A program made the translations under genes and the position numbers. From contig CAWJHK010000011.1 in assembly GCA_963842695.1 (NCBI GenBank), forward strand, positions 52,952 to 116,951: 64,000 nt of DNA, read 5' to 3'. This document shows, piece by piece, positions 1-58,687 of this stretch. The notes below the pieces were generated by a model that ran no database searches, had not been told where the DNA came from, and saw only the letters and a list, made by a program, of their open reading frames with translations. Within the stretch, counting starts at the first letter, position 1; each line of letters starts with the position of its first letter. Source of the DNA: an uncultured Chloroflexia bacterium (GTDB taxonomy: Bacteria; Chloroflexota; Limnocylindria; Limnocylindrales; CSP1-4).

Positions 1-97
1 TCCTGTCGAGCGCCTCGTCCCAGGTCGCGGGTCGGAGCTCGCCACCCTTCGTGTCGCGCACGAGGGGCTGGGTCAGTCGCACGTAGGGCTTCGCCAC
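1..97 (-). CDS. molybdopterin-dependent oxidoreductase, N-terminal fragment (formate dehydrogenase / YdeP-like); gene runs off the left edge
   Basis: Reverse strand reads GTG-AKPYVRLTQPLVRDTKGGELRPATWDEALDR, preceded by AGGAGG 6 nt upstream. The '...RLTQPL...WDEAL' pattern matches the N-terminal region of molybdopterin oxidoreductases. Confidence 0.35.
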   Translation of the reverse strand, partial: MAKPYVRLTQPLVRDTKGGELRPATWDEALDR

Positions 98-172
98 GCG
101 GTGGCCTCCTGCGGTTGACGACCGGGGAGTGTAGCGCCGGGCTCTGGAGAGCCGACCCTCCGGGCCGTTCTG

Positions 173-2264
173 TCAGGTGGCCCGCGCCGACCGGCGGGCT
201 CGCGGAGCGGCCGCCTCCGGTCCGACCTGGACCCGGCCACGGCCGAAGGCGTCGATCCGCCCCCAGCGACCGGGGATGTCGAGCAGCTCGAGGTGGCCGA
301 TCGATGGCCGGGAGCGCCGGGTCGACGATGAGGTGGTCGCCGATCGGCTCCAGCCCGAGCATCGTGCGGAGGAGGAGCAGCGGCGCCCCGGTCGACCAGG
401 CCTGCGGACCGCACGCCGTCGGGTACTGGACGGGGTACTTGGTCAGCGCCCGGTCGTAGCCGCCGAAGGCCTCCGGCAGGCGACCGTCGAACAGCGCGGC
501 AGCGTCGAGGATGTCCGAGGCGATCCGTGCCGCCTCCTCCTTGAACCCGTACCGTCGCAGGCCCCACGCGATGAACGAGTTGTCGAACGGCCACACGGTG
601 CCGAGGTGGTAGCCGATCGGGTTGTAGCGCGCCTCGCCCACGGCGAGCGTGCGCACGCCCCAGCCCGAATACAGGCGTGGCCCCATCAGGTGCTCGACCA
701 CGGACTTGGCCTTCGCCTCGTCGACGATGCCGCTCCAGAGCAGGAGCCCATTGTTCGACGCCAGCGAATCGACCTGCGCGCCGTCGGCATCGAGCGCCAG
801 CGCGAAGTACCCGCGATCGGCGACCCAGAAGTCGCGGTTGAACCGCTTCTTGAGGTCGTGCGCCTCCTGCTCGAGCCGGTCGGCGTACGCCGGGTCGTTC
901 CAGATCGTGCGCGCGAGCCTGGCGCCACGGAGCTTCGCGTCGTAGGCGTAGCCCTGCAGCTCGCAGGTCGCCCGCGGGAAGCCGGGCAGCCGGCCGTCGC
1001 TGTAGGAGATCGAGTTCCACGAGTCCTTCCAGGACTGGTTCTCGATCCCGGTCTGCTCGTTGCGACGCTTGTAGGAGATGTAGCCGTTGCCCATCAGGTC
1101 GGCGAACTCGTCGATCCAGTTGAGCGCCGCGCGAGCCTCGTACTCCAGGTCGCGGACGAGCTTCCGGTCGCCGGTCCAGCGCTCGTACTCGTCGAGGAGG
1201 ACGACGTACAGCGGGCGTCGCGTCGACCGAGCCGTAGTACGGCGAGTGCGGCCGCTCCTCGAAGGCCGCCATCTCGCCGTAGCGCATCTCGTGAAGGATC
1301 CGGCCCGGATCCTCGTCGCGGAAATCATCGCGGCGGCTGCCCTGCCAGTCGCCGAGCACCCGCAACGTCGTGGCCGCCAGCTCCGGCGTGAACGGCAGCG
1401 TCTGGAGGCTGGTCAGGATGCTGTCGCGCCCGAACATCGTCATGAACCACGGCAGGCCGGCGGCCGGCAGGCTCTTGCCACCGGCGACCGGTGGCGAGAA
1501 CCGGAGCGCGGCGAGGTCGACCAGGCTGCGCCGGTAGGTGGCCATCAACGGGGCGAGATCGCATTCGAGGCGGGGCGCGTCCGCGATCCACCGCTCGAGG
1601 CTCTGGCCCATGTTCGGTCGCGCCCGCTTCTGGCCGCGGTCGTACTTCGGCCGGGCGTAGGTGCCGCCGCACCGGCCCGGGAGGTCACGACGTCGAGGTC
1701 CGTGGTCCAGCTGCCGTGCGGCTCGATCCGGACGGCGAACGTGAAGCCTCCCTCGTCGATGCTGGCCGGCGCCGACGACGAGATGATCGTCTCCCGCACG
1801 AACGTCTCGCGTGAGTAGCGGAGGTGCAGCCGGCCGTCATCGATCCGCGAGTCGTAGCCCCCGACCTTCTTGAGCGCGTCCTTGACCTCGAACAGGTCGG
1901 CGAAGTCGCTGGCCGCGTCGATCCGGACCGAGAGCTCGACCGGCTCGTCCTGGTGGTTGAGGATCGTCAGCTCCTCGTGGAACCCGTTGCCGACCGCGCG
2001 CTCGCGGATGACCGACAGCTTGGCGTCGATGTAGACCGTGCCTGTCCCGGGGACGAGGAAGAAGCGCGACTCGAAGTACTGGAGGTCGTCGATCGAGAGC
2101 GAGTTCAGCTTCTGCCCGTCGATCGTCAGGACCCACTTCGACAGGAAGCGGGTGTCGAACGAGAAGAGCCCGGTCGGCTCGGTCGGCGAGGCTTCGACGT
2201 CGCCGCGTTCGTCGCAGACGATGAACGTGTTCCCGTCGAGGATCCTGACCGTCTGCTGCGCCAT
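173..2264 (-). CDS. glycogen debranching enzyme / amylo-alpha-1,6-glucosidase (GDE_N + GDE_C), with at least 3 apparent frameshifts
   Basis: N-terminal part MAQQTVRILDGNTFIVCDERGD...; catalytic-domain motifs LPWFMTMFGRDSILTSLQ and HEMRYGEMAAFEERPHSPYYGSVDATP; C-terminus ...LLDIPGRWGRIDAFGR, stop TGA at 173-175. GGAGGGG RBS upstream of the ATG at 2264. Reading frame breaks near 1215 and 1550-1610. Confidence 0.75.
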
Positions 2265-2289
2265 CGTCAGCCCCTCCGCTTGCCGACGG

Positions 2290-2648
2290 TGCGAGCGGAC
2301 GCCGTCATCTTGCGTCCCGTGGGTGCCGGGAACAGCCGCTGGAACCGGATCAGGAGACGCCGGATCGCCTTCGATCACGACCTTGCCGCGCAGGATCGAC
2401 GCCATGGCGTTGGCCCGGCCGCTGACCAGGTCGTCGAAGAGGCCCGGCGTCCGTCCGGACGACGCAGTCGGCCGTCGCCGCCCGCGTGCGAGACCGTGAC
2501 GTCGCCACGGCGAACGTCGACCCGCCACTGCTCGCGCTCGCTCGTCGTCGTCGAGGTCGAACCGGATGCTGCCGGTCGCCCGCGCCAGTCTCGGCTCCCG
2601 GCCACGCTCGGCCAGCGCCTCGAAGAAGTCGGACGTCGGATCAACCAT
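2290..2648 (-). CDS. SCP2 (sterol-carrier-like) domain protein, frameshifted
   Basis: Segments DFFEALAERGREPRLARATGSIRFDL, WRVDVRRGDVTVSHAGGDG and LVSGRANAMASILRGKVVIEGD lie in different frames. Together they are typical of small actinobacterial SCP2 proteins. Confidence 0.4.
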
Positions 2649-2866
2649 GGTGTCTCCCCCACATTCCTGTCGGCCGGCCCTCGTGCCGGCGCGGCCTCAG
2701 CGGTATTCGTCTCGCGCCTTCGGGTCGGCGCGAAGAAGACCCGGAACAGGACGACGAAGCTGACGATCAGCGTGATGCGCGAAGGCGATCATCGCGATGT
2801 AGGCGACGCCCTGGAACTGCTCGAGCTCGGGCTGGAGCAGGACCGCCATCACGATCGCGGTCCCGA

Positions 2867-4480
2867 TCAGCTGGCCGACGACGATGATCCCGACCGTCGC
2901 CTGGCGGCCGATGTCGCTGACACGCTCGAGATCGACGTCTCGAGCCCCTTCGTGTCGACCTCGACCACGAACTTGCCCTTGTTGAACTGGTCGATCCAGC
3001 TGAGAGTGCCGCGCCCTCGAGCGACGGCACCTTGCGGGCGAGCTCCTTGCCGATCCGGACGGCGCTCGCCTGGAGCTGCTTCTGGATCTTCTCCGGGCGT
3101 GAACGAGTCGAGCAGCGCCGCCCGCGCCTCGGTCACGGCCGCCTCGCCGAGGTCGATGTCGAACGACAGGGCGCGCGCCGTCTCCTCGGCCTGGATGACG
3201 GCCTTGATCGCCAGCGTCAGCTGGCTGTCGAGCTGGAGCGCCGTTGTCGAAGACGGCCGACAGGAACGCCCCGAGCGCGTCGCCGAGCGACGTCGCCTTG
3301 CCGTAGATGAGGTACTGGCGGGCGAGCCGGTCGATGTCGTCGCGGTAGCGCGGCCTCGTCGAACCCGCGGGTCGTCTTGCCGAGCGCGAGCAGCCCGTCG
3401 CCGATGCCCGGGATGTCGACCTCCTTGATCGAGTAGATCAGCCCGAGCAGGTCGACCCGCTGCTGGGCGTCGAGCTGCCCGACGAGCCCGAGGTCGAGGA
3501 AGATGATCTGCTTCGAGATCGGGTCGGCCAGGATGTTGCCCGGGTGCGGGTCGCCGTGGAAGAAGCCGTCGACGAGGACCTGCTTGATGATCGAGCGGAT
3601 GAACACGGTCCCGAGCTCGGTCGTGTCGAAGCCGGCCTCGCGCAGCTCGTCCGCCTTCGAGATCTTGATGCCCTTGACGAACTCCATCGTGATGACGCGC
3701 TGGCCCGACAGCTCGTCGTAGACCGAGCGGGACGTGGATCTCCGGGAAGCGCTGCATGCCGTCCGCCAGGCGGCGCGCGTGGTAGGCCTCGTTGCGGTAG
3801 TCGAGCTCCTTGAGGACGCCCTGCCGCGAACTCCGCGACGATCGCCCGGAGGTTGACCTTGCGGGCGACGGCGAAGCCGCCGCTCGGCGACCTTGGCGAG
3901 CTCCTGGATGACGCCCGAGGTCGGCCTGGGTCTTGGCCAGGATCCGCGGTCGCTGGACCTTGACCGCGACCAGCGTCCCGTCGTGGAGGCGTCGCCTGGT
4001 GGACCTGCGCGGTCGACGCCGCGGCGAACGGGACCGGGTCGAACGTCTCGTACAGCGCCTCGGGCGGCGCGCCGAGCTCCTTGGTGACGATCGCGACGAC
4101 GTCCTCGTAGGCGAACGGCGCCGCCTCGCTCTGGAGCTTCGACAGCTCCGCGATCCACTCGGGCGGCAGGATGTCGCCCCGGCTCGCCATCATCTGGCCG
4201 ATCTTCACGTAGGTCGGCCCGAGCTGCTGGAGCATCGCCACGATCCGCTCCGGCCCGGTGGCGTCGCCGTCAGCTCGTCCGTCGTCGCCGAGGACGCGCC
4301 GCGCGAACCAGCGGCGGACGTCGCCGATCGGCGTGTCGGCTCGAGGGCGATGTCGAGGCTCGTCGTGTAGATCAGGTTGTAGACCTGCTGGAGGCGCAGG
4401 TTCTCGATGATGACGTTGCGTCGCGGCGTCGGCAGCGATTCGAGGAAGCCCCAGATGCCGCGGCTCCGGTCGGCGCTGAG
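2867..4480 (-). CDS. ABC1/UbiB-family atypical protein kinase, with at least 3 apparent frameshifts
   Basis: Segments across three frames: LGPTYVKIGQMMASRGDILPPEWIAELSKLQSEAAPF, VITMEFVKGIKISKADELREAGFD..., FHGDPHPGNILADPISKQIIFLDLG and C-terminal ...NKGKFVVEVDTKGLE. Stop at 2867. Confidence 0.7.
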
Positions 4481-4489
4481 GTCCGGCCG

Positions 4490-4901
4490 GTTGAGGCCGA
4501 GGACGGCGTCGATGACCGTCGACAGGACCGTGTAGAGGGCCGCCGCGACGATGACCCAGAGGAGCGTCGGCTGCGGCGACGTCGGCGATCTTGATCGGCG
4601 CGATGAACGAGGTGATGTAGATCGCGATCGCGTTGATGATCACGACGAAGAAGCCCATCGTCGAGAACAGGAGGCGGCCGGTGAGCGCGACGAGGACCGG
4701 CCGCGCGAACCGGTTGACGAGCACCAGGACGGCGGCCCACGACGACGAAGCCGACGATGCCGGCGCCGCGGAGGGCGATGATCGGCGCCGAGTTCGGCGC
4801 CGAACGGGAACGGCTGCTCGACGCGTGATGAGTCCGAGCACCAGGACGATGACGAGGAGGATGAGCGCGTCGAGCACCACCTCGACGATGAAACGGCGCA
4901 T
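4490..4901 (-). CDS. DUF360 / 4-TM membrane protein (phage-holin-4 superfamily-like), frameshifted; possibly continuous with the downstream kinase
   Basis: MRRFIVEVVLDALILLVIVLVLGLI..., PVLVALTGRLLFSTMGFFVVIINAIAIYITSFIAPIKI and LWVIVAAALYTVLSTVIDAVLG. No stop was seen before the kinase N-terminal segment in the stitched frame. Confidence 0.4.
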
Positions 4902-5007
4902 CGCGACCCTCCTCGAGCGATCCGGCCCGATGACGCGGCCATCGGCGGCACTCGGTCATTGTCCGGTCATCGCGCCGGCACGGCGCGCGACGGCTGCCGG
5001 ACGGCCG

Positions 5008-6081
5008 TCAGGCGCAGGGCGACGCCTCGGCAGGCGATGCCGGCCGGCGTCGACGACCTCGCCGATCCACCAGTGCTCGACGCCGGCCGCATCGAACGCG
5101 GCCTCGACCGCGGCGACGCTGCTCCGGCGGGACCGCGGCGAGCAGGCCGCCCGAGGTCTGCGGGTCGTGGGCGAGGGTGACGAGCTCCGGCGGCACGCCG
5201 GCGCCGACGTCGAGCGAGTCCGCGACGAAGCGGCGGTTGTGGGCCGCGCCGCCGGTCTCGACGCCGGCCGCGGCGAGCTCGAGCGCGCCGGGCAGCGCCG
5301 GCAGGGCGGCCGCCTCGAACGCGAAGCGCGTGCCCGACGCGCGGGCCATCTCGAGGCCGTGGCCGAGCAGGCCGAAGCCGGTGACGTCGGTCGCGGTCCG
5401 GATGCCGGCCGCGACCAGGGCGTCCGCGGCGGCCCGGTTCAGGCGGCGCATCCCGTCGATGGCGGTGGCCAGGTCGGCCTCGCTCGTCCGGCCCTGGCGG
5501 TGACCCGACACGAGGAGCCCGGTGCCGAGCGGCTTCGTCAGGACGAGCCGGTCGCCCGGTCGGGCGCCGCCCTTGCGCAGCAGCTGGTCGGGATGTGCGG
5601 CGCCGATGACCGCCAGCCCGTACTTCGGCTCCGGGTCGCGGATCGTGTGGCCGCCGGCCAGCGTGCCGCCGGCCTCGCGGACCTTCGCCGAGGCGCCCGC
5701 GAAGATCTCCGCCAGCACGTCGCGCGGCAGCTCCTCGGGGAAGGCCGCGATCGACAGGGCGAACAGGACCCGGCCGCCCATCGCGAACACGTCGGACAGC
5801 GCGTTCGCGGCGGCGATCTCGCCGAACGTCCGCGGGTCGTCGACGAGCGGCGGGAAGAAGTCGAGCGTGCCGATGATCGCGAGGTCGTCGCTGACCCGGT
5901 AGGCGGCCGCGTCGTCGGGCGGGTTGAGGCCCGGCGATCAGGTCGTCGGGCGCGGCCGCGGCGTCTCGGCGCCCAGACCGGCCAGCGCCTCGGCCAGCAG
6001 GTCGGCGCCGAGCTTCGCGGCGCAGCCGCCGCAGTCGGTCAGCTCGGTCAGGCGGAACGGCGGCGGTTCGAGCGCGGTCAT
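5008..6081 (-). CDS. selD: selenide, water dikinase (selenophosphate synthetase); Cys version, frameshift near the C-terminus
   Basis: MTALEPPPFRLTELTDCGGCAAKLGADLL (both Cys codons are TGC); ...RLVLTKPLGTGLL..., TDVTGFGLLGHGLEMA and AHDPQTSGGLL. C-terminal AFDAAGVEHWWIGEVVDAG lies in another frame. Confidence 0.8.
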
Positions 6082-6144
6082 GACTCGATGATAGGCGCAT
6101 CGCCGCGACCGCGACGCGCGACCGTCCCGCGCTACCATCGCGGC

Positions 6145-6241
6145 GGGAGCGGACGGGTCCCGGTGGGTCCCCTGGTCTTCAACACCAGTGGCGCGGCGCT
6201 CGGCGCGGCGCGGTGGGTTCGACTCCCACGCGTTCCCGCCA
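6145..6241 (+). tRNA. selC: tRNA-Sec (selC), anticodon UCA, 97 nt, 8/5 cloverleaf
   Basis: Acceptor GGGAGCGG pairs with GCGUUCCC (7 bp + 1 mismatch), then discriminator G and CCA. D-arm GGGUCC-CGGU-GGGUCC (6 bp, 4-nt loop). Anticodon arm CUGGU-CUUCAAC-ACCAG gives anticodon UCA. Long GC-rich variable arm. T-arm GUGGG-UUCGACU-CCCAC. Sits between divergent selD and selA. Confidence 0.8.
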
Positions 6242-6252
6242 CGGAGGCGTCA

Positions 6253-7650
6253 TGTCGTGCCGGATCGCCCGCGTCCCCCGAGCGTCGAGCGGCTGCTCGC
6301 CGCCGTCCGGCCGCAGCTGCGCCGGCGCGGTCCGACGCGGACGCGGTCACCGAGGCGGCCCGGGCCGTGGTCGCGACGAACGGGCCCGGCTCGCGGCCGG
6401 CGAGGCGCCCGACCGACGTCGACCAGGCTCGCCGACGACGTCCGGACCCGGCTCGGCGCGTTCGCCGGATCCGCCGGACAGGGCTGACTCCGCGTCATCA
6501 ACGCGACCGGGCGTCGATCCTCCACACGAACCTCGGCCGCGCGCCATGGCCGGCGCCGCGATCGAGGCGGCCGCCGCGCGCGGCAGCCGGCTACTCGCTG
6601 CTCGAGCTCGACCGCGAGACCGGCCGCCGCGGGCCGCGCTTCCGCGCCGCCGAGGAGCACCTCATCGCCCTGACCGGCGCCGAGGACGCGCTGGTCACCA
6701 TCAACAACGCCGCAGCCCTCGCGCTGGCCGTCGGGCTCGCCGGCCGCCGCGGCGTCGCCGTCTCGCGCGGCGAGCTCGTCGAGATCGGCGGCGGCGTCCG
6801 GATCCCGGAGATCGTCCGGCGGGCCGGGGCGCGGCTGGTCGAGGTCGGGACGACGAACCGGACGCGCGCCGCGGACTTCGAGGCGCCGCTGGCCGACGGC
6901 CGGGCGAGCCGTCGTCCTGCGCGTCCACCCGTCGAACTTCGCCCAGACCGGCTTCGTCGAGGCGCCGGACCCGACCGAGCTCGCCCGGCTCGCCCACGCG
7001 CACGGCGCGATCGTCGTCGACGACCTCGGGAGCGGCGCGCTGCTCGACACGGCGGCTTCGGGCTCGCCCACGAGCCGATGCCGGCCGAGCGGCTGGCCGC
7101 CGGCGCCGACCTCGTCACGTTCAGCGGCGACAAGCTCGTCGGCGGGCCCCAGGCGGGACTGGTCGTCGGCCGGGCGGACCTCATCGCGCCGGATCCGGCG
7201 GGACCCGCTGGCCCGGGCGATGCGGCCGGACAAGGTCGACGCTCGCGGCGCTCGCCGCGACGCTCGGGCTGTACCGGGCCGGCCTGGCGACGACCGAGAT
7301 CCCCGTCTGGCGGATGATCGCGAGGCCAGCCGCGGACGCTGCGGGCCCGCGCCGAGCGACGTCCTGGCGGCGGTCTCGCAGGCCGAACCGCGACGCGGGT
7401 CGAGGTCGGCGATCTGACGTCGACGGTCGGCGGCGGGTCGCTGCCCGGCGAGACGCTCCCATCGGTCGGGCTGCTCGTCGGCGGCGCGGGGCGGCGGCAC
7501 TGGCGGCCCGGCTGCGCGCCGGCGACCCGGCCGTCATCGGCCGGATCGAGGACGGAGCCGTCGTGCTCGACCTCCGGACGGTCGACCGGACGTCCGACGG
7601 CGACCTCGGCGCGAGCGCTCGACGGCGCGCTTGGCGGAGCGCGCTCCGGA
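6253..7650 (+). CDS. selA: L-seryl-tRNA(Sec) selenium transferase, multiple frameshifts
   Basis: N-terminal [15 protein letters not shown]. Core [27 protein letters not shown]...[25 protein letters not shown]...[19 protein letters not shown] site [25 protein letters not shown]-terminal [11 protein letters not shown]...IPVWRMIA...[17 protein letters not shown]. Confidence 0.8.
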
Positions 7651-9490
7651 TGACCGTCGTCGTCGGCACGGCCGGCCACATCGACCACGGCAAGACGACG
7701 CTGCTGCGGGCGCTGACCGGGATCGACGCGGACCGCCTGCCCGAGGAGCGCCGGCGCGGGCATGACGATCGACGTCGGCTACGCCCACCTGGCCTTCGCC
7801 GACGGCACCGAGCTCGACTTCGTCGACGTCCCCGGCCACGACCGGCTCGTCGGCAACATGCTCGTCGGCGCGGGCGAGATCGATGCGGCGATGCTCGTCG
7901 TGGCCGCCGACGACGGGCCGCGCGCCCAGACGCTCGAGCACCTCGCGCTGCTCGACGCGCTCGGGATCCGGCACGGGCTGGCGGTCGTCACGAAGGCGGA
8001 CGTCGCCGGCCCGGACCGGACGACGGAGGTCGTGGCGGCGACGTCGGCGGCTGCTCGACAGGGACGTCGCTCGCCGGCTCGCCGATCGTCGCGGTGTCGG
8101 CCGGTCGACGGTGGCGGGATCGACGCGGTGCGGGCGGCGCTCGACGGTTCCGCGATCGGGTCGCTCGCCGACGCGCCCGCCGGCGATGCGTCGCGGCCGT
8201 CGCGCCTGGCGATCGACCGGGTCTTCGCGGTCAAGGGCCGTGGGGTCGTCGTGACCGGCACGCTGCGCGGCGGGTCCGTGAGCAAGCGGCGCGACGCTCC
8301 GGCTCGTGCCGGGCGACCGGTCCGTCCGCGTCCGCGAGGTCCAGGTCCACGGCCGGACGGTCGAGTCCGCCGGTCCGCGGCCGGACCGCGCTGAACCTCG
8401 CCGGGGTCGAGCCGGCCGAGCTCCACCGCGGGCTCGTCCTGACCGACGACCCGGCGGTCGTGGCGAGCGACCGGCTGCTCGTCCGCGCTCCGAAGCCGCC
8501 TCCCGGACCGGACGCGGGCGCGGCTCCATCTCGGGACGGCCGCGGTCGATGCCGCGGTCGGCCGGAGCGGGCGCGACGCGCTCGACCTGCCCGACGGGTC
8601 ACTCGGGCGGCGATCCTCCGTCTCGCCGCGCCGGTCGCGGTCGCGATCGGCGACCGGCTCGTCCTCCGGCGGCCGGCGTCGCGCGATCCGATCGTCGGCG
8701 CGGTCGTGCTCGATCCGATGCCGGCGCGCGGCATCTCGCGGCGTCGCCAGACGGCCGAGCGCGTCGGGCCGGCTCGCCGCCGCGGTATCGGCGCACGACG
8801 AAGCCGGCATCGAGGCCGCGCGGCTCGACCTCCACGGAGCAGCTCGTGACGGCCGGACACGAGGCGCGCCTCGCGCCGGACGTCGCCGAGGCCGCAGCCG
8901 CCAGCGTGCTCGGTGCGGTGGCGACCGAGCCGACGCTGGCGGCCGCCCGGACCGCCGGAGCGCGTGCCATCCGGCGGCTCGCGACGGTCGACCGCAGCGT
9001 CGCCGCCGGAGGCGGCCGCGAGGGTCGATCGACGACCTCGTCCGGGATCGGCGCCTCGAGCGTGATGGTGCCGGTCTCGGCATCCCGGGCACGATCGCGA
9101 CGTCGCCCGCGCCCGACGCGGCGGTCGACGGCGCGATGGACCGGCTCGAGGCTGCGCTGGCGACCGCGGCCCGCCCGAGCCTCGCCGACGCCGCCCGCGT
9201 CGGCCGGTTGCCCGCCGGACGGCGTCCGCGAGCTCGAGCGACGCGGCCGGATCGTCGTGCTCGAGCCCGACCTCGCCTACGCCGTCTCGACCTACCGGGA
9301 GATCGAAGCGACGGCGCTGTCGATGGCCACCGCGGGGCCGCTGACGCCGGCCGCGCTGCGCGACGCGACCGGCACGAGCCGCAAGTACGTCATGGCCATC
9401 CTCGCCGACCTCGACCGCCGGGCGTCCTCCGCCGGACTCCGGACGGACACGTGCCCGGACCTCGCGCGAACGCGTCGGGTCCGCGACACG
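7650..9490 (+). CDS. selB: selenocysteine-specific elongation factor, multiple frameshifts
   Basis: [37 protein letters not shown]|[30 protein letters not shown]... A G insertion in a GGG run breaks the frame at about 7758. C-terminal winged-helix [27 protein letters not shown]. Confidence 0.8.
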
Positions 9491-10077
9491 ATGAGGGACG
9501 GGCGTCCGCTGAGCGCCGTGATCCTCGCCGGCGGACGGTCGTCCCGCTTCGGTCGCGACAAGCTGGCCGAGCCGATCGAGGGGCGATCGCTGCTCGATCG
9601 CGCAGTCGACGCCGTCGCGCCGCTCGCCACCGAGGTCCTCGTCGTCTCCGCACCAGGGGCCGAGCTCACGACCCACCTGGGCGCGCGGATCATCCACGAC
9701 CCGGAGCCTTCGAAGGCCCGCTGGCGGGAACGCTGGCCGGGCTCGCGGCCGCGACCGGTGACGCCGTCCTCGTCGTCGGCGGCGACATGCCGACGCTCGT
9801 CCCGGATGTGCTCGAGTCGATGGCGAGCGAGCTCGACGACCCGGCGATCGAGGCGTGCGTCCTCGACCACGACGGTCGCGCGAGGCCGTTGCCGATGGTC
9901 GTCCGCCGAGCCCCGGCGATCGCCGCTGCGCGGACGCTGCTCGATCGGCGTGAGCGTCGCCTGCGCGCATTGATCGATGCGCTCGAGACGCGATCGATCC
10001 CCGAAGCGACCTGGCGCCGCCTCGATCCCGACGGCGAGACGCTCCGCGACATCGACACGCCGGCAGACCTCGGCTGA
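9491..10077 (+). CDS. MobA/MocA-like molybdenum-cofactor nucleotidyltransferase, one frameshift near 9715
   Basis: MRDGRPLSAVILAGGRSSRFGRDKLAEPIEGRSLLDRAVDAV...GPLAGTLAGLAAATGDAVLVVGGDMPTLVPDVLESM. Follows selB with no intervening stop in the stitched frame. Confidence 0.65.
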
Positions 10078-10102
10078 TCGCGCGGGCCTGCGCGGCGGGC
10101 GC

Positions 10103-10140
10103 CACACGAAACCCCGCGGACAGACGAAAACCCCTGCTGG
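10103..10140 (-). terminator. intrinsic terminator: GC hairpin CCCCTGC-TTCCTCCA-GCAGGGG followed by TTTTC on the minus strand
   Basis: Perfect 7-bp stem with a U-rich tail immediately downstream of the 10194..10400 minus gene. The hairpin is also read after mobA on the plus strand, but without a U tail. Confidence 0.55.
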
Positions 10141-10193
10141 AGGAAGCAGGGGCTCTCGCGTATTGGGAGGGAAGAGCGGTGGCTGAGGAGGAG

Positions 10194-10400
10194 TCAGCCC
10201 CCGTACGGGTAGTTCTTGAGGTTCGGAAGCGTGGGTCCGCTGGGCTCGAGACCGAGGGTCCGACGAACCTCGGCGGCACCCGATCCGATACGCGACCGAA
10301 GGCTGCGGCGCTCGGCCAACGAGGCCAATCGACGATCCTTGGCCTCGGACCGCATGTGCTCCAGGTGGTCGTTGACGTAGATGACGGCGACGGCGTTCAC
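10194..10400 (-). CDS. small hypothetical protein (68 aa), possible ribbon-helix-helix DNA-binding fold
   Basis: GTG start with AAGGAG 6 nt upstream; intrinsic terminator downstream. Sequence MNAVAVIYVNDHLEHMRSEAKDRRLASLAERRSLRSRIG... shows a beta-strand plus two helices pattern. Confidence 0.5.
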   Translation of the reverse strand: MNAVAVIYVNDHLEHMRSEAKDRRLASLAERRSLRSRIGSGAAEVRRTLGLEPSGPTLPNLKNYPYGG

Positions 10401-10427
10401 TGGTCTCTCCTTTCCGCTCCCTCGGAC

Positions 10428-12189
10428 TCAGTTCCGTGGTGCATGGCCATCATCGCCCTGCGGCCATGGCCGGCGAACACCGACATCCGGCGCCGAATCG
10501 GCATCGTCATGCGTCCATGCGTCAGCCCTCGAGCTCGGGCCTCTCGTGCACGGCATGCCATCGATGAACGTGGCGACGACGCGCGCGTCGCCGATCGCGC
10601 CGGACCCGCGGTCGAACAGGTCCCGGTCCAGGATGACGAGATCCGCCGACTTGCCGACCTCGATCGAGCCGACCTCGTCGTCGACGTGATTGACCCAGGC
10701 GGAGCCGAGCGTGAACGCGGTGAGCGCGTCGGTGAGGTCGATCCGCTGCTCGGGCAGGAACGGCTCCTTCTTGCCGCGGTGCTCGACGCTCACCCGGTTG
10801 ACCGCCACCTCCATCTGGGCCAGGGGATCGGCGGTCGAGACGCTCCAGTCCGAGCCCATCGCCAGCCGCGCCCCGGCCCGCACGAGCGATCCGAACGGGT
10901 ACATCCGCGCGACACGCTCGGCCCCCAGGAACGGGATGGTCAGCAGCTCGAGCTGATCCTCGAGGGCGGCCCAGTCGGCCTGGGCATTGGCCGCGACGCC
11001 GAGCTCCCGGAACCGCCCGAGTCGTCCGGGTGGATCAGCTGGATGTGGGCGATGTGGGGCCGCGTGTCGGTCGGACCGTTGACCCGCCGGGCGGCGGTCG
11101 ACCGCGTCGAGCGCCTCGCGCACCGCCCGGTCGCCGATCGCGTGGACGTGGGTCTGGAAGCCCAGCGCGTCGACCGCGGCCACGGACGCGCCCGAAGGCC
11201 TCCGGGTCGATCATGCTACGGCCCGTCTCGCCGTGATGCCGCCCTGCCCGTCGAGATACGGCTCGAGCAGCGTCCCGCTGAAGTTCTCCAGCACCCCGTC
11301 GGCGATGAACTTGACGCTCGTCGGGGCATAGCGCGGCGCGGTCGTCCGGCTCCGCCGCTCGATCGAGCTCCCCGATCTGGGCGTCGTCGCGCGTCTCGTC
11401 CCATCCAAGAGCCCCGACGACGCGGGCCGTCAGCTCGCCGCGGGCGGCCAGCGTCGGGTAAGCGACGTCCTCCATCGCGGGCCGGACGATGGGCGTCCTG
11501 CCATCCGGTGATGCCGAGGGCATGAAGCTCGGCCTGGGCGAGTCGCAACCCGGTGACCCGACCTCCGTCGGGGATCGTCGGGAGCAGGCCGGTGACGAGG
11601 TCGCAAGCCGCCCTCCTGGAGCGTGCCCGAGGGCTCGACCGTCGGTCTCGCGCTCGATGCGGCCGTCGAGCGGGTCAACGGTCCTCGCGGTGATCCCGGC
11701 CAGCTCGAGCGCGCGGCTGTTGACCCAGCCGCTGTGCCCGTCGCGGCTCTCGAGATAGACCGGCCGATCCGGCTCGATCCGATCGAGATCGTGCCGGGAC
11801 GGGATCCCGCGTGCGAAGTCGGCCATCGACCAGCCGCCACCGCGGATCCAGGACTCGTCGGGATGAGCGCCCGCGTAGAGCGGCGATCCGCTCGAGGTAG
11901 ACGTCCAGGCCCCGCAGCCGCGTCAGGTCGCAGCGAAGCATCTCCACCCCGGACGACACGGGATGGACGTGCGCATCGATGAACCCCGGCGTGACCGACC
12001 TGCCGCGGAGCTCGACGACCCGCGTCCGCGGTCCGATCCGCGCCGCGACATCGACATCCTCACCGACCGCCACGATCCGCCCGCTCGCGACGGCGATCGC
12101 CGATGCGCGCTCCGGGCCGGATCCATCGTCACGACGCGGCCGCCACGCAGGACCAGGTCGGCGGGACGGTCGGGGGATCCGGCGCTCAC
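10428..12189 (-). CDS. Amidohydro_3 (YtcJ-like) metal-dependent amidohydrolase, 3-4 frameshifts
   Basis: ADLVLRGGRVVTMD...; GRSVTPGFIDAHVHP; SVKFIADGVLENFSGTLLEPY; HVHAIGDRAVREALDA...; GSDWSV...; C-terminal VGKSADLVILDRDLFD. Confidence 0.7.
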
Positions 12190-12284
12190 CCGCCGAGGAT
12201 GCCAGCCCTGTCCACTGGCCGGCCCGGCATCCCGTCCGCCGCGACGGCCTGACCCGCCGTCGCGCGGCCGTCTAGCATCCGGCG

Positions 12285-12834
12285 GTGACCTCGGTCCATC
12301 TCCTCCACGCCGGCTATACCGGCGGGCACGTCGGCAGCACGCGTCGCGCTCGTTCGCGATGGCGACGCCCTGATCGTGGTCGACCCCGGGATGGTCGCGC
12401 GCCGCTCGCTGATCCTCGATCCGCTGGCCGAGCTCGGGGTCCGGCCCGAGGCGGTCACCCATGTCTTCCTGAGCCACCACCACCCCGACCACACGATGAA
12501 CTGCGCCCTCTTTCCGAACGCCGAGGTCGTCGACTTCTGGGCCCGCTACATCGACGACCTCTGGCTCGACCACGACGGCGACGGCCATCGCCTGGCACCG
12601 AACAGCGAGCTGTGGCTGACGCCCGGTCACAGCGAGGAGGACGCGACGCTCGTCGTCACGGCCGACGACGGCGTGTATGCCATGACCCACCTGTGGTGGC
12701 ACTCGGACCGGACGCCGGTCGTCGACCCGTTCGCGTCGGATCAGTCCGCTCTCGAGCGCGGCCGTGCGCGGGTCCTGGCCGTCGCCGATGTCGTCATCCC
12801 GGGCCACGGGGCTCCGTTCCGGGTCCGCGACTGA
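12285..12834 (+). CDS. MBL-fold metallo-hydrolase, one frameshift near 12345
   Basis: MTSVHLLHAGYTGGHVGST|VALVRDGDALIVVDPG...THVFLSHHHPDHTMNCALF...LTPGHSEEDATLVV...VIPGHGAPFRV. Confidence 0.6.
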
Positions 12835-15814: not shown

Positions 15815-15833
15815 GTGACAACGAACCTGTCAC
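15815..15833. promoter_or_regulatory. inverted repeat GTGACA-N7-TGTCAC upstream of the sbcD-like gene
   Basis: Perfect 6-bp arms about 160 bp upstream of the sbcD start, in a 367-bp intergenic region. Confidence 0.25.
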
Positions 15834-15989
15834 AATGGCGCCCGATCATCGGAGTCGGCGAGCGGGGAGTCATGGGGGCGCCTCGCTCGCGCCATGCCGG
15901 GGCCATCACCGTCGAGCCCGGTCGTGGGCGATCCGTGGCTGACTCCGTCCGTCCAGGCGCGTCCGAGAGGGGAGGTCAGCAGCAGCGCG

Positions 15990-17192
15990 ATGCTCAGGAT
16001 CATCCACACCGCGGACGTCCATCTCGGCGCACGGCACGACGATCTCGGCGAGCAGGCCGCTGCCCAGCGTGAGCGGCAGTTCGGCGCGTTCAAGGCAGCC
16101 GTCGATCTGGCGCTGGCCGAGAAGGTCGACCTGTTCCTGGTGGCCGGCGACCTCTTCGATTCGAACGTCCAGCCGCGGCGCTCGGTCGAGCGGGTGGCGG
16201 CCGAGCTCAGGCGCCTGGCCGACGCCCGGATCCGCTCGGTGCTCATCCCGGGCACGCACGACTGCTACGACCGTGCGTCGGTCTACCGTGCCTACGACCT
16301 GGCGGCGATGGCCGGCAGCGCGGCGGGCGACGAGATGGTCACGGTCCTCGATCCCGATCACCCGTCGATCCACCTGACGGCGCTCGACGCTGTCGTGCAT
16401 GGCCGGGTCTTCGCCACCAAGCGAGCGCCGTACAGCCCGTTGCGCGACCCGGTCGGGGCCGGTGGCGGGGCTGCTGGCGTGGCGCCGGCGGTCGGCCTGA
16501 CCCACGCGGCCACCTGGCACATCGGCATGGTCCACGGCTCGATCGCGATCCCGGGCAAGACCGAGGGCGACGAGGTCGTCATCACGACCGCCGAGATCGC
16601 CGCCAGCGGGCTCGACTACCTGGCCCTTGGGCACTGGCACTCGGCCCAGAGCGCGAAGGCCGGTTCGGTGACCTACGCGTATGCCGGCGCGCCGGAGGCC
16701 GTCGCCCTCGATCAGGATCGTGCCGGCAAGGTCCTCCTCGTCCAGCTCGACGACCAGGCCGGCCGGCGCGTCGTCAGCGTCGAGGAGCGGCCGGTCGGTC
16801 GGACGCGGTTCGACAAGGTCGAGATCGACGCGGCGACGGTGAACGGCCAGCCGGCCCTGGTCGGGCTTCTCGCGACGCGCGCCGACCCGGACCTCGTCCT
16901 CGACGTCCGGCTGGTCGGCGTCCGTCGTGACGACCTCGACCTCGACACCGCCGAGATCGAAGCGGCGCTCGCGCCGTCGTTCCTCAAGGTGCGGGTCCGC
17001 GATGTCTCCATGCCCGCCCTGACCGAGGGTCCGTTGCCGTCGTCCGACACGATCGCGGGCGCCTTCATCCGCGACCTCGAGGCACGGATCGCCGCGCTCG
17101 AGGCGGCCGGCTCGACCGCCGAGGCCGCCGAGCAGCGGGACGCCCTCCGCCTCGGCCGACTTCTGCTCGGTGGCCACGAGGTCTCCCTGTGA
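15990..17192 (+). CDS. sbcD: SbcD/Mre11-family DNA repair exonuclease (metallophosphoesterase)
   Basis: MLRIIHTADVHLGARHDD...LFLVAGDLFD...LIPGTHDC... (phosphoesterase motifs). Stop overlaps the next gene's start (GTGA). Confidence 0.8.
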   Translation: MLRIIHTADVHLGARHDDLGEQAAAQRERQFGAFKAAVDLALAEKVDLFLVAGDLFDSNVQPRRSVERVAAELRRLADARIRSVLIPGTHDCYDRASVYRAYDLAAMAGSAAGDEMVTVLDPDHPSIHLTALDAVVHGRVFATKRAPYSPLRDPVGAGGGAAGVAPAVGLTHAATWHIGMVHGSIAIPGKTEGDEVVITTAEIAASGLDYLALGHWHSAQSAKAGSVTYAYAGAPEAVALDQDRAGKVLLVQLDDQAGRRVVSVEERPVGRTRFDKVEIDAATVNGQPALVGLLATRADPDLVLDVRLVGVRRDDLDLDTAEIEAALAPSFLKVRVRDVSMPALTEGPLPSSDTIAGAFIRDLEARIAALEAAGSTAEAAEQRDALRLGRLLLGGHEVSL

Positions 17193-19330
17193 GGCTTCGC
17201 AAGCTCAGCGGCAACGACTTCCGCCGCTATCGCACGTTCGATGTCGATTTCGCACCGGGACTGACCGTGATCCGCGGGCCGAACGAGTCCGGCAAGACGA
17301 CCCTGCAGCGCGCGCTCGAGCTGGCGCTGACCCGCCGTGCCACGAGCACCGCCGGCGAGCTCGAGGCGCTCCGGCCGTGGGGTGCGCCACCCGAGGCGCG
17401 CTCGGTCATCACCGTCGTGTTCGAGCAGGACGAGGAGGACGGCCAGAAGGTCGGGACGCTCGAGAAGACGTTCGCCGGCTCGCGCGGCACGGTCCTCCTC
17501 GACTACGACGGCCAGTCGATCTCCGACCCGACGCTCGCGGACCAGGTGATGGTCGAGCTCACCGGGATCCCGACCGAGGGGTTCTTCCGGTCCACGGCGT
17601 CGATCCGCCATTTCGAGCTGAGCGACCTGTCGCGCGACGAGGGCGCATTGCGGGATCGGCTCCAGGCGTCGATCAGCGGCGCCGACCGCGGCACCAGCCG
17701 GGCACGACGCAAGCTCGACCGGGCGCTTCACGACCTGACGACCCGCGGCGATCGCAACCCGGGCCGCCTCAAGGTCGCCGAGCAGGCCGTCGAGCAGGCC
17801 CAGATCGCCGTTGAACAGGGCGAGCTCGCCCTGGCCCAGCTCGAACGTGACCGCGACACGCTGTCGACGGCGAGGGAGCGGCGGGCGACCGCGGAAGCCG
17901 CGCTGGCCGAACGGCGAAGCATGCTCGACAAGGCGCGACAGGCAGAGCGGATCACCGCCGAGCGCACGGTCGCGGCCGAACGCTTCGACCGCTATCGCGA
18001 GGCGGTCGAGATCAGCAGCCAGCTCGTCGGACTGGCGGACACGCATCCGTCCCCGAACCCGTTGCCCGTGCTGCGGACAGCGGTCGAGCGACTGCGGACG
18101 CTCGACGGCCGGATCCGCGAGCTGAAGGCGGCCCTGTCGGGCGAAGTCGCCGTCGAGTTCGACGTCGCTCCGGAGCCGACGTGGCGCCCGTTGTCGAGGG
18201 TGTCCATCGCCCTCGTCGTGATCGGCATCCTGATTGCCGCCGGGCCGGTCCTCCTCAAGGGCCTCGGCATCGCCGACCCCGGCTTCGCGGTCCAGGCCAT
18301 CGGCGGGATCGTGGCGATCATCGGGCTGGCCCTTGCGGCCGTTGCGCTCTGGCTGCGGCGCAGCGCCAGGCTGCAGGCCCAGCTGCGAGACGTGGAGATC
18401 GATCGCCGGCTCCGCGGCCGGTCCGACATGGAGGCCGAGCTCAAGGACGCGGAGGCCCGCGTTGCGTCGCAGCTGGCGGCGCTCGGGTTGCCGGGGATCG
18501 CCGACGCCGAGGAGCTGATGACCCGCGAAGAGAACCATGTCGCGCAGATCGAGCGGCTGACCGCGCAGCTGGAGGGCCTCGTCGGCAAGGATCCTCCCGG
18601 CGACCTGCAGACGGTCCGGGACGAGGCCGCCCTCGAGATCTCGCAGAAGACCAGCGCCCTCGAGGCGCTCGGACCCATCGCCAAGGAACCACGGGCACGC
18701 GAGCGACTCGAGGTCGAGGTCCGCGATCAGGAGACCGCGCTCGAGCACGCTCGCGATGACGAGGCCAACGCTCGCGCCCGGGTCGAGGCCAACGCGGTCG
18801 ATGCCGAGCAGGTCGCCGGACAGGCCGAGCGCCTGGCTGCGTGGCGCGAGCAGCTGGCCGCCCTGCAGCGCCGGCAGCGCGTCTTCGCGGCCACGCTGGA
18901 AGCGATCGATCGCGCCGAGCAGGCGACGATGAAGACCGCGACCCGGTACCTCGAGGAGCACATGGTCCGCGACCTTGCCGAGGCGACAGGTGGTCGCTAT
19001 CGCCGGGTCCGGGTCGACGATCGAACCCTCGACATCGAGGTCCATGCTCCAGAGAAGGACGACTGGGTCCCGGTCTCCTCGCTCAGCCAGGGCACCGTCG
19101 ACCTCGTCTATCTCATCGCCCGGCTCGGGCTCGTCCGGCTGGTGACCGGCGATCGGCGGCCGCCGCTGATCTTCGACGACCCGTTCGTCACGCTCGATGA
19201 CACGCGGGCGACGAACGCCGTCGCCCTGCTGCGGAAGATCGCTGCCGACTTCCAGGTCATCTACCTGACGACGTCTCCCCGCTACGACGCGAGCGCCGAC
19301 GCCGTCGTCCTGCTGGACGGCCCCACGGTC
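17189..19330 (+). CDS. sbcC: SbcC/YhaN-like AAA ATPase with central TM hairpin and coiled coils; 3' end uncertain because the ORF reads through
   Basis: Walker A GPNESGKTTLQRALELAL; central TM hairpin VSIALVVIGILIAAGPVLLKGLGIADPGFAVQAIGGIVAIIGLALAAVALWL; C-terminal LIFDDPFVTLDD (Walker B / D-loop). No stop before the EamA domain. Confidence 0.75.
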
Positions 19331-19356
19331 GTCGACGGCGGGGAGCCGGCGGTCGT

Positions 19357-20320
19357 GTCCGAGCGGCCTGCCGTTGGCTCGGCTGCGGCGTCGGCGGCGG
19401 CGGTCGAGGCCCACGCCCCTGCCCCGGCCGCGGCCTCGTGCGGGGCCGCGCGCCTGATCGACCTCGGGGGGCCGGCGACGGCGACCGTCGTCTTCGGCCT
19501 GGCGTCGGCGGTGGCGTGGGGGTTCGGGGACTTCGGCGGTGGACTCCTGACCCGTCGGACGGCGCTGTTCGGGGTCGTCCTCGTGTCGCAGCTCGTCGGG
19601 ATGGGGCTGGCGGTCGTCCTGACCCTGCTTCGCGGCGAGACCACGCCGTCCCCCCTCGACCTCGGCTGGAGCGTCCTCGGCGGCGTCGCCGGCGCGACCG
19701 GGATCAGCGCCCTCTACCAGGCCCTTGCGGTCGGGCGCATGGGGATCGTCGCGCCGGTCACCGGTGTCATCGCGGCGATCATCCCGGTGGGGGCCGGGAT
19801 CGTGCTCGAGGGCGTGCCGCCGCCGCTCGTGCTGGCCGGGATCCTGCTCGCGATCGTTGCCGTCGTCCTCGTCTCGCGCAGCGACAGCGGAGACGGCGGC
19901 CGCTCGGGTCTCGGCCTTGCGCTGCTGGCCGGGCTGGGCATCGGCGCCCTGAGCGTCTGCATCTCGCAGATCAGCGACGGCCACGTGTTCGGTCCGCTGG
20001 TCGTGATCCGGGCGACCCAGGCGGTCTTCATCGTCGGCGTCATCCTCCTGACCCGGTCGGCCTGGCGCGTCGAACGATCGCTCCTGCCGGCGACGGCGGC
20101 GGTCGGCGTCCTCGATATGGCAGGCAACGGGATGTTCATCCTTGCCGTCCAGTCGGGTGCCCTTGCGGTCGCCGCGGTCCTGTCCTCGCTCTACCCGGTG
20201 ACCACGGTGATCCTGGCGACGGTCGTGCTCCGCGAGCGGATCACCCGGTCGCACGCGGTCGGGATCGTGCTCGCGGCGGTCGCCGTCGCCGCCATCGCGG
20301 CAGGATCAGCCGCGGGGTAG
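19357..20320 (+). CDS. EamA/DMT-family transporter; in frame with the upstream sbcC-like ORF, start uncertain
   Basis: Ten predicted TM helices of EamA type: ...TVVFGLASAVAWGFGDFGGGLL..., ...LYPVTTVILATVVLRERI.... The only in-frame start candidate is a GTG at 19357. Confidence 0.55.
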
Positions 20321-33684: not shown

Positions 33685-34941
33685 TCACGCACCCCCCCAG
33701 TGCGGCCCCACGATCGCCGCGGCCGAGCGGAGCGCGCCGACCGACACGAAGTCCTGGCCGCTCGACTCGATCGCCTCCGCCAGGAGCTCGACGTCGGTGC
33801 GCCGCGGCGCCCGGAACTGGCGTTCCATGACTTCGACGCCGTCCTGCCAGACGCGGACGTGGACGGTCTCGGCCTCGGCGGTGACGTCGGCGCGCAGCTC
33901 CGACGCGCGTCGCTCGGCGAGGAGCTCGACGCGGAGGGTCGTCCCGGGCGGCGTCGGTGAGGCCACGGGTCGGACCACCACCGCCACCTCGGACCGGCCG
34001 TCCGACAGGGTCGCCGCCACGCCGCGGCTCATTGCGGGACGTGCGTTTCCATGCGCGGCACGGGCACGTGACGTGACGGAGGCGTGCATGCCGGTGACCG
34101 GCGAGAGCGGCTTCGAGACCGAAAGGTTCAGTCGGGATGCGAGCCACCCGACGTGGTAGATGGGCTTGACGACGTTGGTCGAGCCGGGCGCGCCGGTCTC
34201 GTCGTGGGTCGAGTACGTCACCGCGATCCGTCGCAGCGATCGCAGGTACGGCAGGAAGTCCGGGTCGTCGAAGATCGAGGCGATCGCCTCACGCCAGCGC
34301 GCCTGGCGCAGGAGCGCGAAGTCGCTGATCGCGAGGGACGAATGCTCGACGAGGTGCGCCATCTCGCGCAGTCGCGGGAGCCCGTCGCCGCTCCACGACG
34401 AGCCGTCGACGATGAGCCGATCGGCAGCCTCCAGCAGATCCTTCGCCGGCCGGCCCGTGAGCGGTGGCTCACCGGGCCACCAGATGGTGACCGGCAGGTC
34501 GTGCACGATCAGCGGCGTGGCGATCGCGGCGAGGTGCAGGCCGGCGTCGCCGCCGCAGGTCACATGGATGGTCTCGGAGCAGGTCTCCGGGGCGTCCTCA
34601 CGCGGCACCACGCAGTGCGCCTCGACCCGCGCGTCGAACCACGACGGGCCGTCCGGATCGGCGGACGACACGACGATCGTCCGTGACGGATGACGCCCGG
34701 TCAGGAGCTGCATCGTCGCCGCGCAGCGTTCCGCGATCTCCGGGCGGCGGACGATGACGATCAGGTTCATGACGCTCGTCCGGGCGGCGACATGGCGGCC
34801 CGGCGCACCATCGACGGTGGCCGTCAGATCCTGCTCGGACCAGATCCGCGCGAGCTGCGTCTCGATCTCGGCGATGCTGTGGGCACGCGCCGACCAGCGC
34901 AGGACGGGCTCGCCGACCACGATAGGCTCGGTGACGGTCAT
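33685..34941 (-). CDS. opcA: glucose-6-phosphate dehydrogenase assembly protein OpcA
   Basis: MTVTEPIVVGEPVLRW...TSVMNLIVIV...LPVTIWWPGEPP... Located between zwf and pgl as in actinobacteria. Confidence 0.8.
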   Translation of the reverse strand: MTVTEPIVVGEPVLRWSARAHSIAEIETQLARIWSEQDLTATVDGAPGRHVAARTSVMNLIVIVRRPEIAERCAATMQLLTGRHPSRTIVVSSADPDGPSWFDARVEAHCVVPREDAPETCSETIHVTCGGDAGLHLAAIATPLIVHDLPVTIWWPGEPPLTGRPAKDLLEAADRLIVDGSSWSGDGLPRLREMAHLVEHSSLAISDFALLRQARWREAIASIFDDPDFLPYLRSLRRIAVTYSTHDETGAPGSTNVVKPIYHVGWLASRLNLSVSKPLSPVTGMHASVTSRARAAHGNARPAMSRGVAATLSDGRSEVAVVVRPVASPTPPGTTLRVELLAERRASELRADVTAEAETVHVRVWQDGVEVMERQFRAPRRTDVELLAEAIESSGQDFVSVGALRSAAAIVGPHWGGA

Positions 34942-34951
34942 CGCGACCGGC

Positions 34952-36655: not shown

Positions 36656-36775
36656 CCCGGCTACTCGGTCTTCACCGCATGAAACCTCGGGCCGACGGCG
36701 TCGAGGGCTCCGCCTCGGACCTCGGCGCGGGCTTCGTGGGTTGCCGGGAAGCTGCGTGCCGGGTTCACTCCGTCT

Positions 36776-56283: not shown

Positions 56284-58687
<2,404 letters not shown>

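Follow-up and report, generated by a model that had tools for sequence, protein, structure and literature searches.

The closest described counterparts of the locus analyzed here are the selenocysteine (Sec) loci of mycobacteria, in which selC lies immediately upstream of selA-selB and selD occupies the opposite strand (PMC13449736). In these loci the encoded CCA end of selC is separated from the selA start by 11 to 75 nt, a GGAGG motif is present in the spacer, and co-transcription of selC, selA, and selB has been established by paired-end RNA-seq (PMC13449736). The Escherichia coli selC gene, in contrast to that of the present locus, is not linked to selA-selB and is found elsewhere on the chromosome (PMC13449736). 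A further comparison is offered by the selC* tRNA-Cys species, which carry U73, and by the allo-tRNAs, whose 12-bp acceptor/T branch is partitioned as 8/4 or 9/3 (PMC5389517). These tRNAs resemble the tRNA described below in their long variable arm, in a long D-stem capped by a tetraloop, and in some cases in a UCA anticodon (PMC5389517).

Our analysis of a 64-kb stretch of DNA (here, the window) from an uncultured Limnocylindria-type member of the Chloroflexota places a selC gene at 6145..6241 on the forward strand. We hold with high confidence that this is the functional selenocysteine tRNA gene of the organism and that the frameshifts in the neighboring sel genes are consensus errors. The gene is a canonical selC in an arrangement of a type already published. 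Its locus agrees with the mycobacterial one in gene order, in strands, in the GGAGG spacer, and probably in a linked formate dehydrogenase selenoprotein, and differs from it in belonging to the Chloroflexota, the evidence for co-transcription being mycobacterial only. Novelty is mild and limited to the C38 variant of the tRNA and to the mycobacterial-type layout in the Chloroflexota: the arrangement selD<- ->selC-selA-selB, known from mycobacteria, is found here in a second phylum that is unrelated to theirs. The gene indicates that selenocysteine is used by the organism and by its clade of uncultured soil Chloroflexota, the client likely being formate dehydrogenase-like; beyond correct annotation, the finding of selC matters little.

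ARAGORN reports a tRNA-SeC with anticodon tca (at tRNA position 35) at 6145..6241 on the plus strand, the sole tRNA that it finds in the 64 kb. In an Rfam search, the tRNA-Sec model RF01852 matches 6145..6237 over its full length (model positions 1-91) with 61.9 bits and an E value of 3.7e-10, which is above the gathering score of 47, and no other Rfam family is found in the window. The sequence-only reading had proposed a tRNA-Sec at 6145-6241 as something that tRNAscan-SE, ARAGORN, or an Infernal-type search should recover; both ARAGORN and RF01852 do call it, ARAGORN with identical coordinates. The same reading had described the gene as unannotated. It is indeed invisible to the track of open reading frames (ORFs), but the two standard tools find it at once.

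Read by hand from the sequence (raw numbering, in which position 1 is the first base of the tRNA), the 97-nt gene has an acceptor stem (1-8/86-93) of seven pairs, G5.U89 among them, and a G8.G86 mismatch. A linker of 2 nt (AC) leads into a D-stem of 6 bp (11-16/21-26, including two G.U pairs) with the loop CGGU. The anticodon stem (28-32/40-44) has 5 bp and a 7-nt loop, CUUCAAC, which contains the anticodon TCA (UCA, reading UGA; 6179..6181 on the plus strand, by sequence and by ARAGORN). The variable arm (47-67) is GC rich, with nine stacked positions, one G.G, and the loop UCG, and the T-stem (69-73/81-85) has 5 bp and the loop UUCGACU. The discriminator is G94, invariant across our alignment of orthologues, and is followed by the encoded CCA. 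Acceptor and T-stems thus form an 8/5 branch of 13 stacked layers; from the sequence alone, the alternative of an 8/4 branch with a bulge (G8-N85), as drawn in the Rfam alignment, can also be proposed. This anatomy coincides with the cloverleaf that had been read from the letters, from the 6-bp D-stem with its CGGU loop and the CUUCAAC anticodon loop through the long GC variable arm, the 5-bp T-stem with UUCGACU, the discriminator G, and the CCA; for the 8/5 partition with one acceptor mismatch, covariation (see below) agrees as well.

The UCA anticodon, the 8/5 branch, the 6-bp D-stem with a 4-nt loop, the long variable arm, G73, and CCA are all shared with E. coli selC and the RF01852 family, and we take the D-loop CGGU and the T-loop UUCGACU to be equal to those of E. 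coli selC. Compared with bacterial tRNA-Sec (RF01852; E. coli selC), the window's clade is set apart by a conserved G.G at the eighth acceptor position, and the window's tRNA has C38 where A is nearly universal.

Because selC*-type tRNA-Cys(UCA) and serine-charged allo-tRNAs, which act as opal suppressors used by EF-Tu, exist and are picked up falsely when genomes are searched for tRNA-Sec (PMC5389517), the gene might be a look-alike of this kind that does not take part in Sec insertion. The G.G at the eighth acceptor position would suit such a tRNA, as it leaves only 12 canonical acceptor/T pairs. However, the discriminator is G and not the U73 that defines selC* tRNA-Cys, and the branch is 8/5 with 13 layers rather than 8/4 or 9/3, the eighth position being a G-C pair in one related locus (L013). 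Furthermore, the T-stem has 5 bp and is fully paired in all 11 sequences that we aligned, and the RF01852 match exceeds the gathering score. Taken with the complete sel cluster around the gene and the client gene of its relatives (see below), these features render a look-alike very improbable.

Relatives of the locus were collected with a 106-residue in-frame piece of SelA as query against species-representative genomes, which gave 80 loci. The best 14 of the 80 show 75-90% identity and come mostly from metagenome-assembled genomes (MAGs) labelled Chloroflexia, Chloroflexota, or Candidatus Limnocylindria/Limnocylindrales, which assigns the window to this group and speaks against an actinobacterial origin. 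A tRNA-Sec is present at the same site, just upstream of selA, in 10 of these 14 closest reference MAGs. Scanning metagenome contigs with the tRNA core retrieved 32 further contigs that carry this core, three of which (L091, L094, and L102) have a selC that matches the window's at every one of its 97 nt (100% identity). Related loci in which selC stands between selD and selA-selB number at least 40.

In four related loci (L005, L008, L010, and L012), the Rfam search finds no tRNA-Sec at threshold. Only the 3' ~50 nt of selC are left next to selA in two of them (L008:5555-5658 and L010:5545-5648), namely the variable arm, the T-arm, the 3' strand of the acceptor, and CCA, with unrelated genes upstream; in the other two, L005 and L012, selC is absent within 6 kb. 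Rearrangement or insertion at selC is possible in these cases, as is misassembly.

The minimum-energy fold of selC is the cloverleaf. In folding energy, however, it gains nothing over shuffled sequences (z = -0.92), and this measure is uninformative here because shuffles of a sequence with 75% GC fold nearly as well; covariation was therefore used as the test. An alignment of 11 orthologues was scored on the 8/5 cloverleaf. Standard pairs occupy 95.3% of the pair cells, and both sides have changed at eight pairs, of which four belong to the D-stem and two each to the anticodon stem and the variable arm. The observed values were not reached by any of 500 shuffles, and in a control in which the 3' partners were slid by 1 to 3 columns, pairing dropped to only 40-57%. 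Across the 11 orthologues, pairing is 100% in the T-stem and in acceptor pairs 1-7, and the D-stem is paired in all cells with compensatory double changes in four of its six pairs; for the variable arm (47-67), which has two compensatory pairs, the figure is 93.9%. The G8.G86 mismatch (window positions 6152 and 6230) is kept in 10 of the 11 orthologues, the exception being the G-C pair of L013. It is thus a feature of the clade and not a sequencing error. The adjacent pair, the first of the T-stem, alternates between G-C and G.U.

These results also bear on the proposal that 6145..6241 is no gene at all but GC-rich intergenic DNA that folds into a cloverleaf by chance. While the folding energy, no better than that of the shuffles, would be in keeping with it, the proposal has to contend with the covariance-model E value of 3.7e-10, with compensatory changes in three helices, and with a conservation of selC of 88-100% against 74-82% identity in the flanking DNA. 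We regard its probability as negligible.

The neighbors of selC were identified from Pfam domains and, after correction of the reading frame, from TIGRFAM equivalogs. Divergent from selC lies selD (selenide, water dikinase; 5030..6081, minus strand, 3' end approximate), which has AIRS and AIRS_C domains, is of the Cys form (TDCGGCAAK), and contains three frameshifts; its frame-corrected product scores 355 bits on TIGR00476 (cutoff, 125). Downstream of selC on the same strand is selA (L-seryl-tRNA(Sec) selenium transferase; 6252..7667), with 14-16 frameshifts of +/-1 nt and pieces of PF03841 in all three frames; frame-corrected SelA scores 435 bits on TIGR00474 (cutoff, 268). The next gene, selB (Sec-specific elongation factor; 7650..9470, plus strand, 12-16 frameshifts of +/-1 nt), begins within the last part of selA. 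Its Pfam pieces (GTP_EFTU, Beta-barrel_SelB, and SelB-wing_3) are distributed over three frames, and a 210-aa SelB fragment has TIGR00475 (selB) as its best match (1.5e-41). Directly after selB follows a mobA-like NTP transferase gene (9491..10077, plus strand) with at least one frameshift, in which PF12804 profile positions 1-69 lie in one frame and 67-155 in another.

From the selD start codon (6081..6079, minus strand) to the selA ATG (6252, plus strand), the gap measures exactly 170 bp. Coordinates and Pfam/TIGR identities thus agree with the selD<- ->selC-selA-selB layout and the 170-bp gap of the sequence-only reading. The divergent selD and the position of selC just upstream of selA on the same strand recur in relatives, and the related loci, at least 40 in number, in which the tRNA is flanked by selD and selA-selB further argue against a look-alike tRNA. 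The spacer between the CCA end (6241) and ATG 6252 is 10 nt, or 15 nt if the alternative start GTG 6257 is used, compared with 11-75 nt in mycobacteria. It contains a GGAGG Shine-Dalgarno motif for selA (6243..6247, plus strand) that begins 2 nt past CCA and ends 4 nt before ATG 6252 and 9 nt before GTG 6257. An intrinsic terminator scan of 5900..6400 gave no terminator-like site. A scan for the sigma-70 consensus, which is not expected to work in Chloroflexota, gave no promoter-like site either. The short spacer with its Shine-Dalgarno motif and the lack of a terminator-like site suggest that selC, selA, and selB share one transcript.

As the sequence stands, selA, selB, and selD cannot be translated, and the window by itself does not display a working Sec machinery. 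Frameshifts were counted against intact relatives with a purpose-built frameshift-aware protein-to-DNA aligner; tblastn is unusable for locating frame breaks at this GC content, at which it yields long low-identity matches in wrong frames, and nucleotide alignments to the closest reference MAGs (about 74% identity), in which the gaps are mostly alignment noise, were replaced. All frameshifts in the three genes are of +/-1 nt, with +1 and -1 roughly balanced, and the aligner detected neither in-frame stops nor larger deletions in any of them. Gene lengths are preserved, that of selA to within 1 nt. In relatives, selA, selB, and selD are each a single ORF, and in L102, whose tRNA is identical to that of the window, selD and selA are intact.

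The frameshifts are not spread over the whole window but concentrated in 1..12.3 kb. At least seven genes are broken in 1..12300 (GDE-like, UbiB-like, selD, selA, selB, mobA-like, and amidohydrolase-like), with a peak at 6250..9470 that falls on the GC maximum of the window (77%, at 6-10 kb). From 12.8 to 64 kb there are many long ORFs, mostly intact. In this part of the window, pairs of long ORFs on the same strand overlap by 120-260 nt at 15819-20317 (plus), 33688-36775 (minus), and 56284-58684 (plus); in each pair, an isolated frameshift may have divided what is really one gene, which would suggest a low background rate of indels outside the hot region.

Two explanations for the broken genes can be compared. 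(i) The Sec machinery may be decaying, with selA, selB, and selD as pseudogenes and the intact tRNA as a leftover that no longer serves selenoproteins. The numbers of frameshifts (14-16 in selA, 12-16 in selB, and 3 in selD) and a density that peaks in exactly the Sec genes would fit such a relic, and loss of the Sec trait is reported to be common in bacteria (PMC1794560). (ii) The frameshifts may be local consensus (assembly) errors in the most GC-rich stretch of the window. The second explanation is the most likely one because indels are in excess without an excess of substitutions. Gap openings number 14.5-20 per kb in the window against a typical 2.5-12, with 8-10 extra openings per kb, and hardly any has a length divisible by three. 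After frame correction, SelA shows 73-78% identity to intact relatives, which show 66-76% to one another; the ratio of SelA to SelD identity spans 0.83-0.95 for the window and 0.83-1.02 for intact pairs, and nucleotide identity to relatives is 80.6-82.5%, compared with 75-81% among intact contigs. Decay is further contradicted by the balanced +1/-1 indels, the preserved lengths, and the missing stops and deletions noted above, and by the fact that genes without a role in Sec (GDE-like, UbiB-like, amidohydrolase-like, and mobA-like) are frameshifted in the same 12 kb. Moreover, the related locus L008, from a long-read MAG, switches frame at an even higher rate. We therefore judge a relic selC to be unlikely. 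Consensus error being preferred, its concentration in 1..12.3 kb probably reflects GC-dependent consensus quality, and the genes in the first ~12 kb, with their dense +/-1 indel errors, should not be called pseudogenes.

The tRNA itself carries one unusual base, a C at standard tRNA position 38 (window position 6183, plus strand; loop CUUCAAC). We compared 56 tRNA-Sec anticodon loops parsed from all fetched loci. The loop is CUUCAAA in 52 of them, including all 23 parsed from more distant phyla, and C38 is limited to four (the window, L091, L094, and L102). A rare substitution at an otherwise invariant position could again be taken as a mark of a relic; however, C38 is common to three independent contigs besides the window, one of which, L102, has the intact selD and selA genes. 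Since these contigs carry the identical tRNA, C38 is not a sequencing error but a real, rare, lineage-specific variant.

The variant might influence how the tRNA is modified or how it decodes. A review states that MiaA cannot isopentenylate A37 unless A36-A37-A38 is present, a motif that does not suffice by itself, that the resulting i6A37 is present on E. coli tRNA-Sec, and that an A38G change in a mitochondrial tRNA-Ser abolishes the modification (PMC5699536). Because C38 breaks the A36-A37-A38 motif, a tRNA-Sec with this base may lack i6A37. We put forward, tentatively and as a possibility that we rate somewhat below its opposite, that the sublineage comprising the window, L091, L094, and L102 naturally reads UGA as Sec with a tRNA devoid of i6A37. 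If true, the C38 tRNA-Sec would offer a natural experiment on whether Sec insertion can do without i6A37, and it would contrast with the E. coli and mammalian tRNA-Sec species, which carry the modification.

A candidate client selenoprotein gene begins a few kilobases from selC at the left edge of the window, where an fdhF-like molybdopterin oxidoreductase gene is represented by its first 32 codons (1..97, minus strand), the rest lying off the window. The gene has a GTG start at 97, with AGGAGG 7 nt upstream, and the peptide read from this start is VAKPYVRLTQPLVRDTKGGELRPATWDEALDR. In L081, the same protein continues to ...NIDSCNRT-TGA-HAPSVAGL... and is a molybdopterin oxidoreductase by PF00384 (7.5e-31). 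It aligns with E. coli formate dehydrogenase H (1aa6; E value, 2.5e-48) so that the TGA falls on residue 140, an X in the PDB sequence, which we take to be the selenocysteine of E. coli FdhF. Nine related loci (L002, L006, L011, L013, L014, L081, L085, L090, and L093) have a TGA at the Sec position within a conserved CNRT-TGA-HAPSVAGL motif. In all nine, an almost invariant hairpin core, GTCGCC-GGTCT-GGCGAC, is found 13 nt past the TGA; it presumably is similar to the apical portion of the SECIS of E. coli fdhF. This Sec-type TGA with its conserved hairpin in the neighboring gene of relatives is likewise hard to reconcile with a look-alike tRNA. In the window's own gene, the Sec codon is expected ~160 nt beyond the left end and is thus seen in relatives only. 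On sequence grounds, the fdhF-like formate dehydrogenase is the likely client of selC.

The fdhF-like protein aligns to FdhF from residue 61 only, and no in-frame N-terminal 4Fe-4S domain was found in the gene at six loci, a difference from the mycobacterial Sec locus. In L011, the gene has a clear ATG start (MARRYTRL). A 552-aa ORF upstream of selD in L002, considered as a UbiB homologue, is actually the post-Sec part of the fdhF-like gene and was excluded from the controls. A search for TGA codons between coding-like flanks gave no other in-frame TGA selenoprotein candidate in the window, its single hit, at 5940 (minus strand), being a by-product of the selD frameshifts. The mobA-like gene after selB plausibly serves molybdenum-cofactor maturation for formate dehydrogenase, and its position fits a molybdenum-cofactor-dependent selenoprotein of this type as the purpose of the cluster.

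On the model of the established bacterial Sec pathway, from which the following steps are drawn, selC would be transcribed as the 5' element of a single selC-selA-selB transcript, from which tRNA processing enzymes would cut out the tRNA. SerRS would then charge tRNA-Sec with serine by way of G73 and the long variable arm, and SelA would turn the serine into selenocysteine with selenophosphate supplied by the divergently encoded SelD. SelB would bring Sec-tRNA to UGA codons that precede a SECIS hairpin, the fdhF-like formate dehydrogenase being the likely client. We infer that charging and actual Sec insertion take place in the window's organism in this manner.

The fdhF-like start is separated from the UbiB-like gene by a glycogen-debranching-like gene at 300..2264 on the minus strand of the window (GDE_N_bis, 1e-51; GDE_C/MGH1-like), which is also frameshifted. 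This gene is absent from the corresponding site in L081, in which the homologous flanks lie only 33 nt apart.
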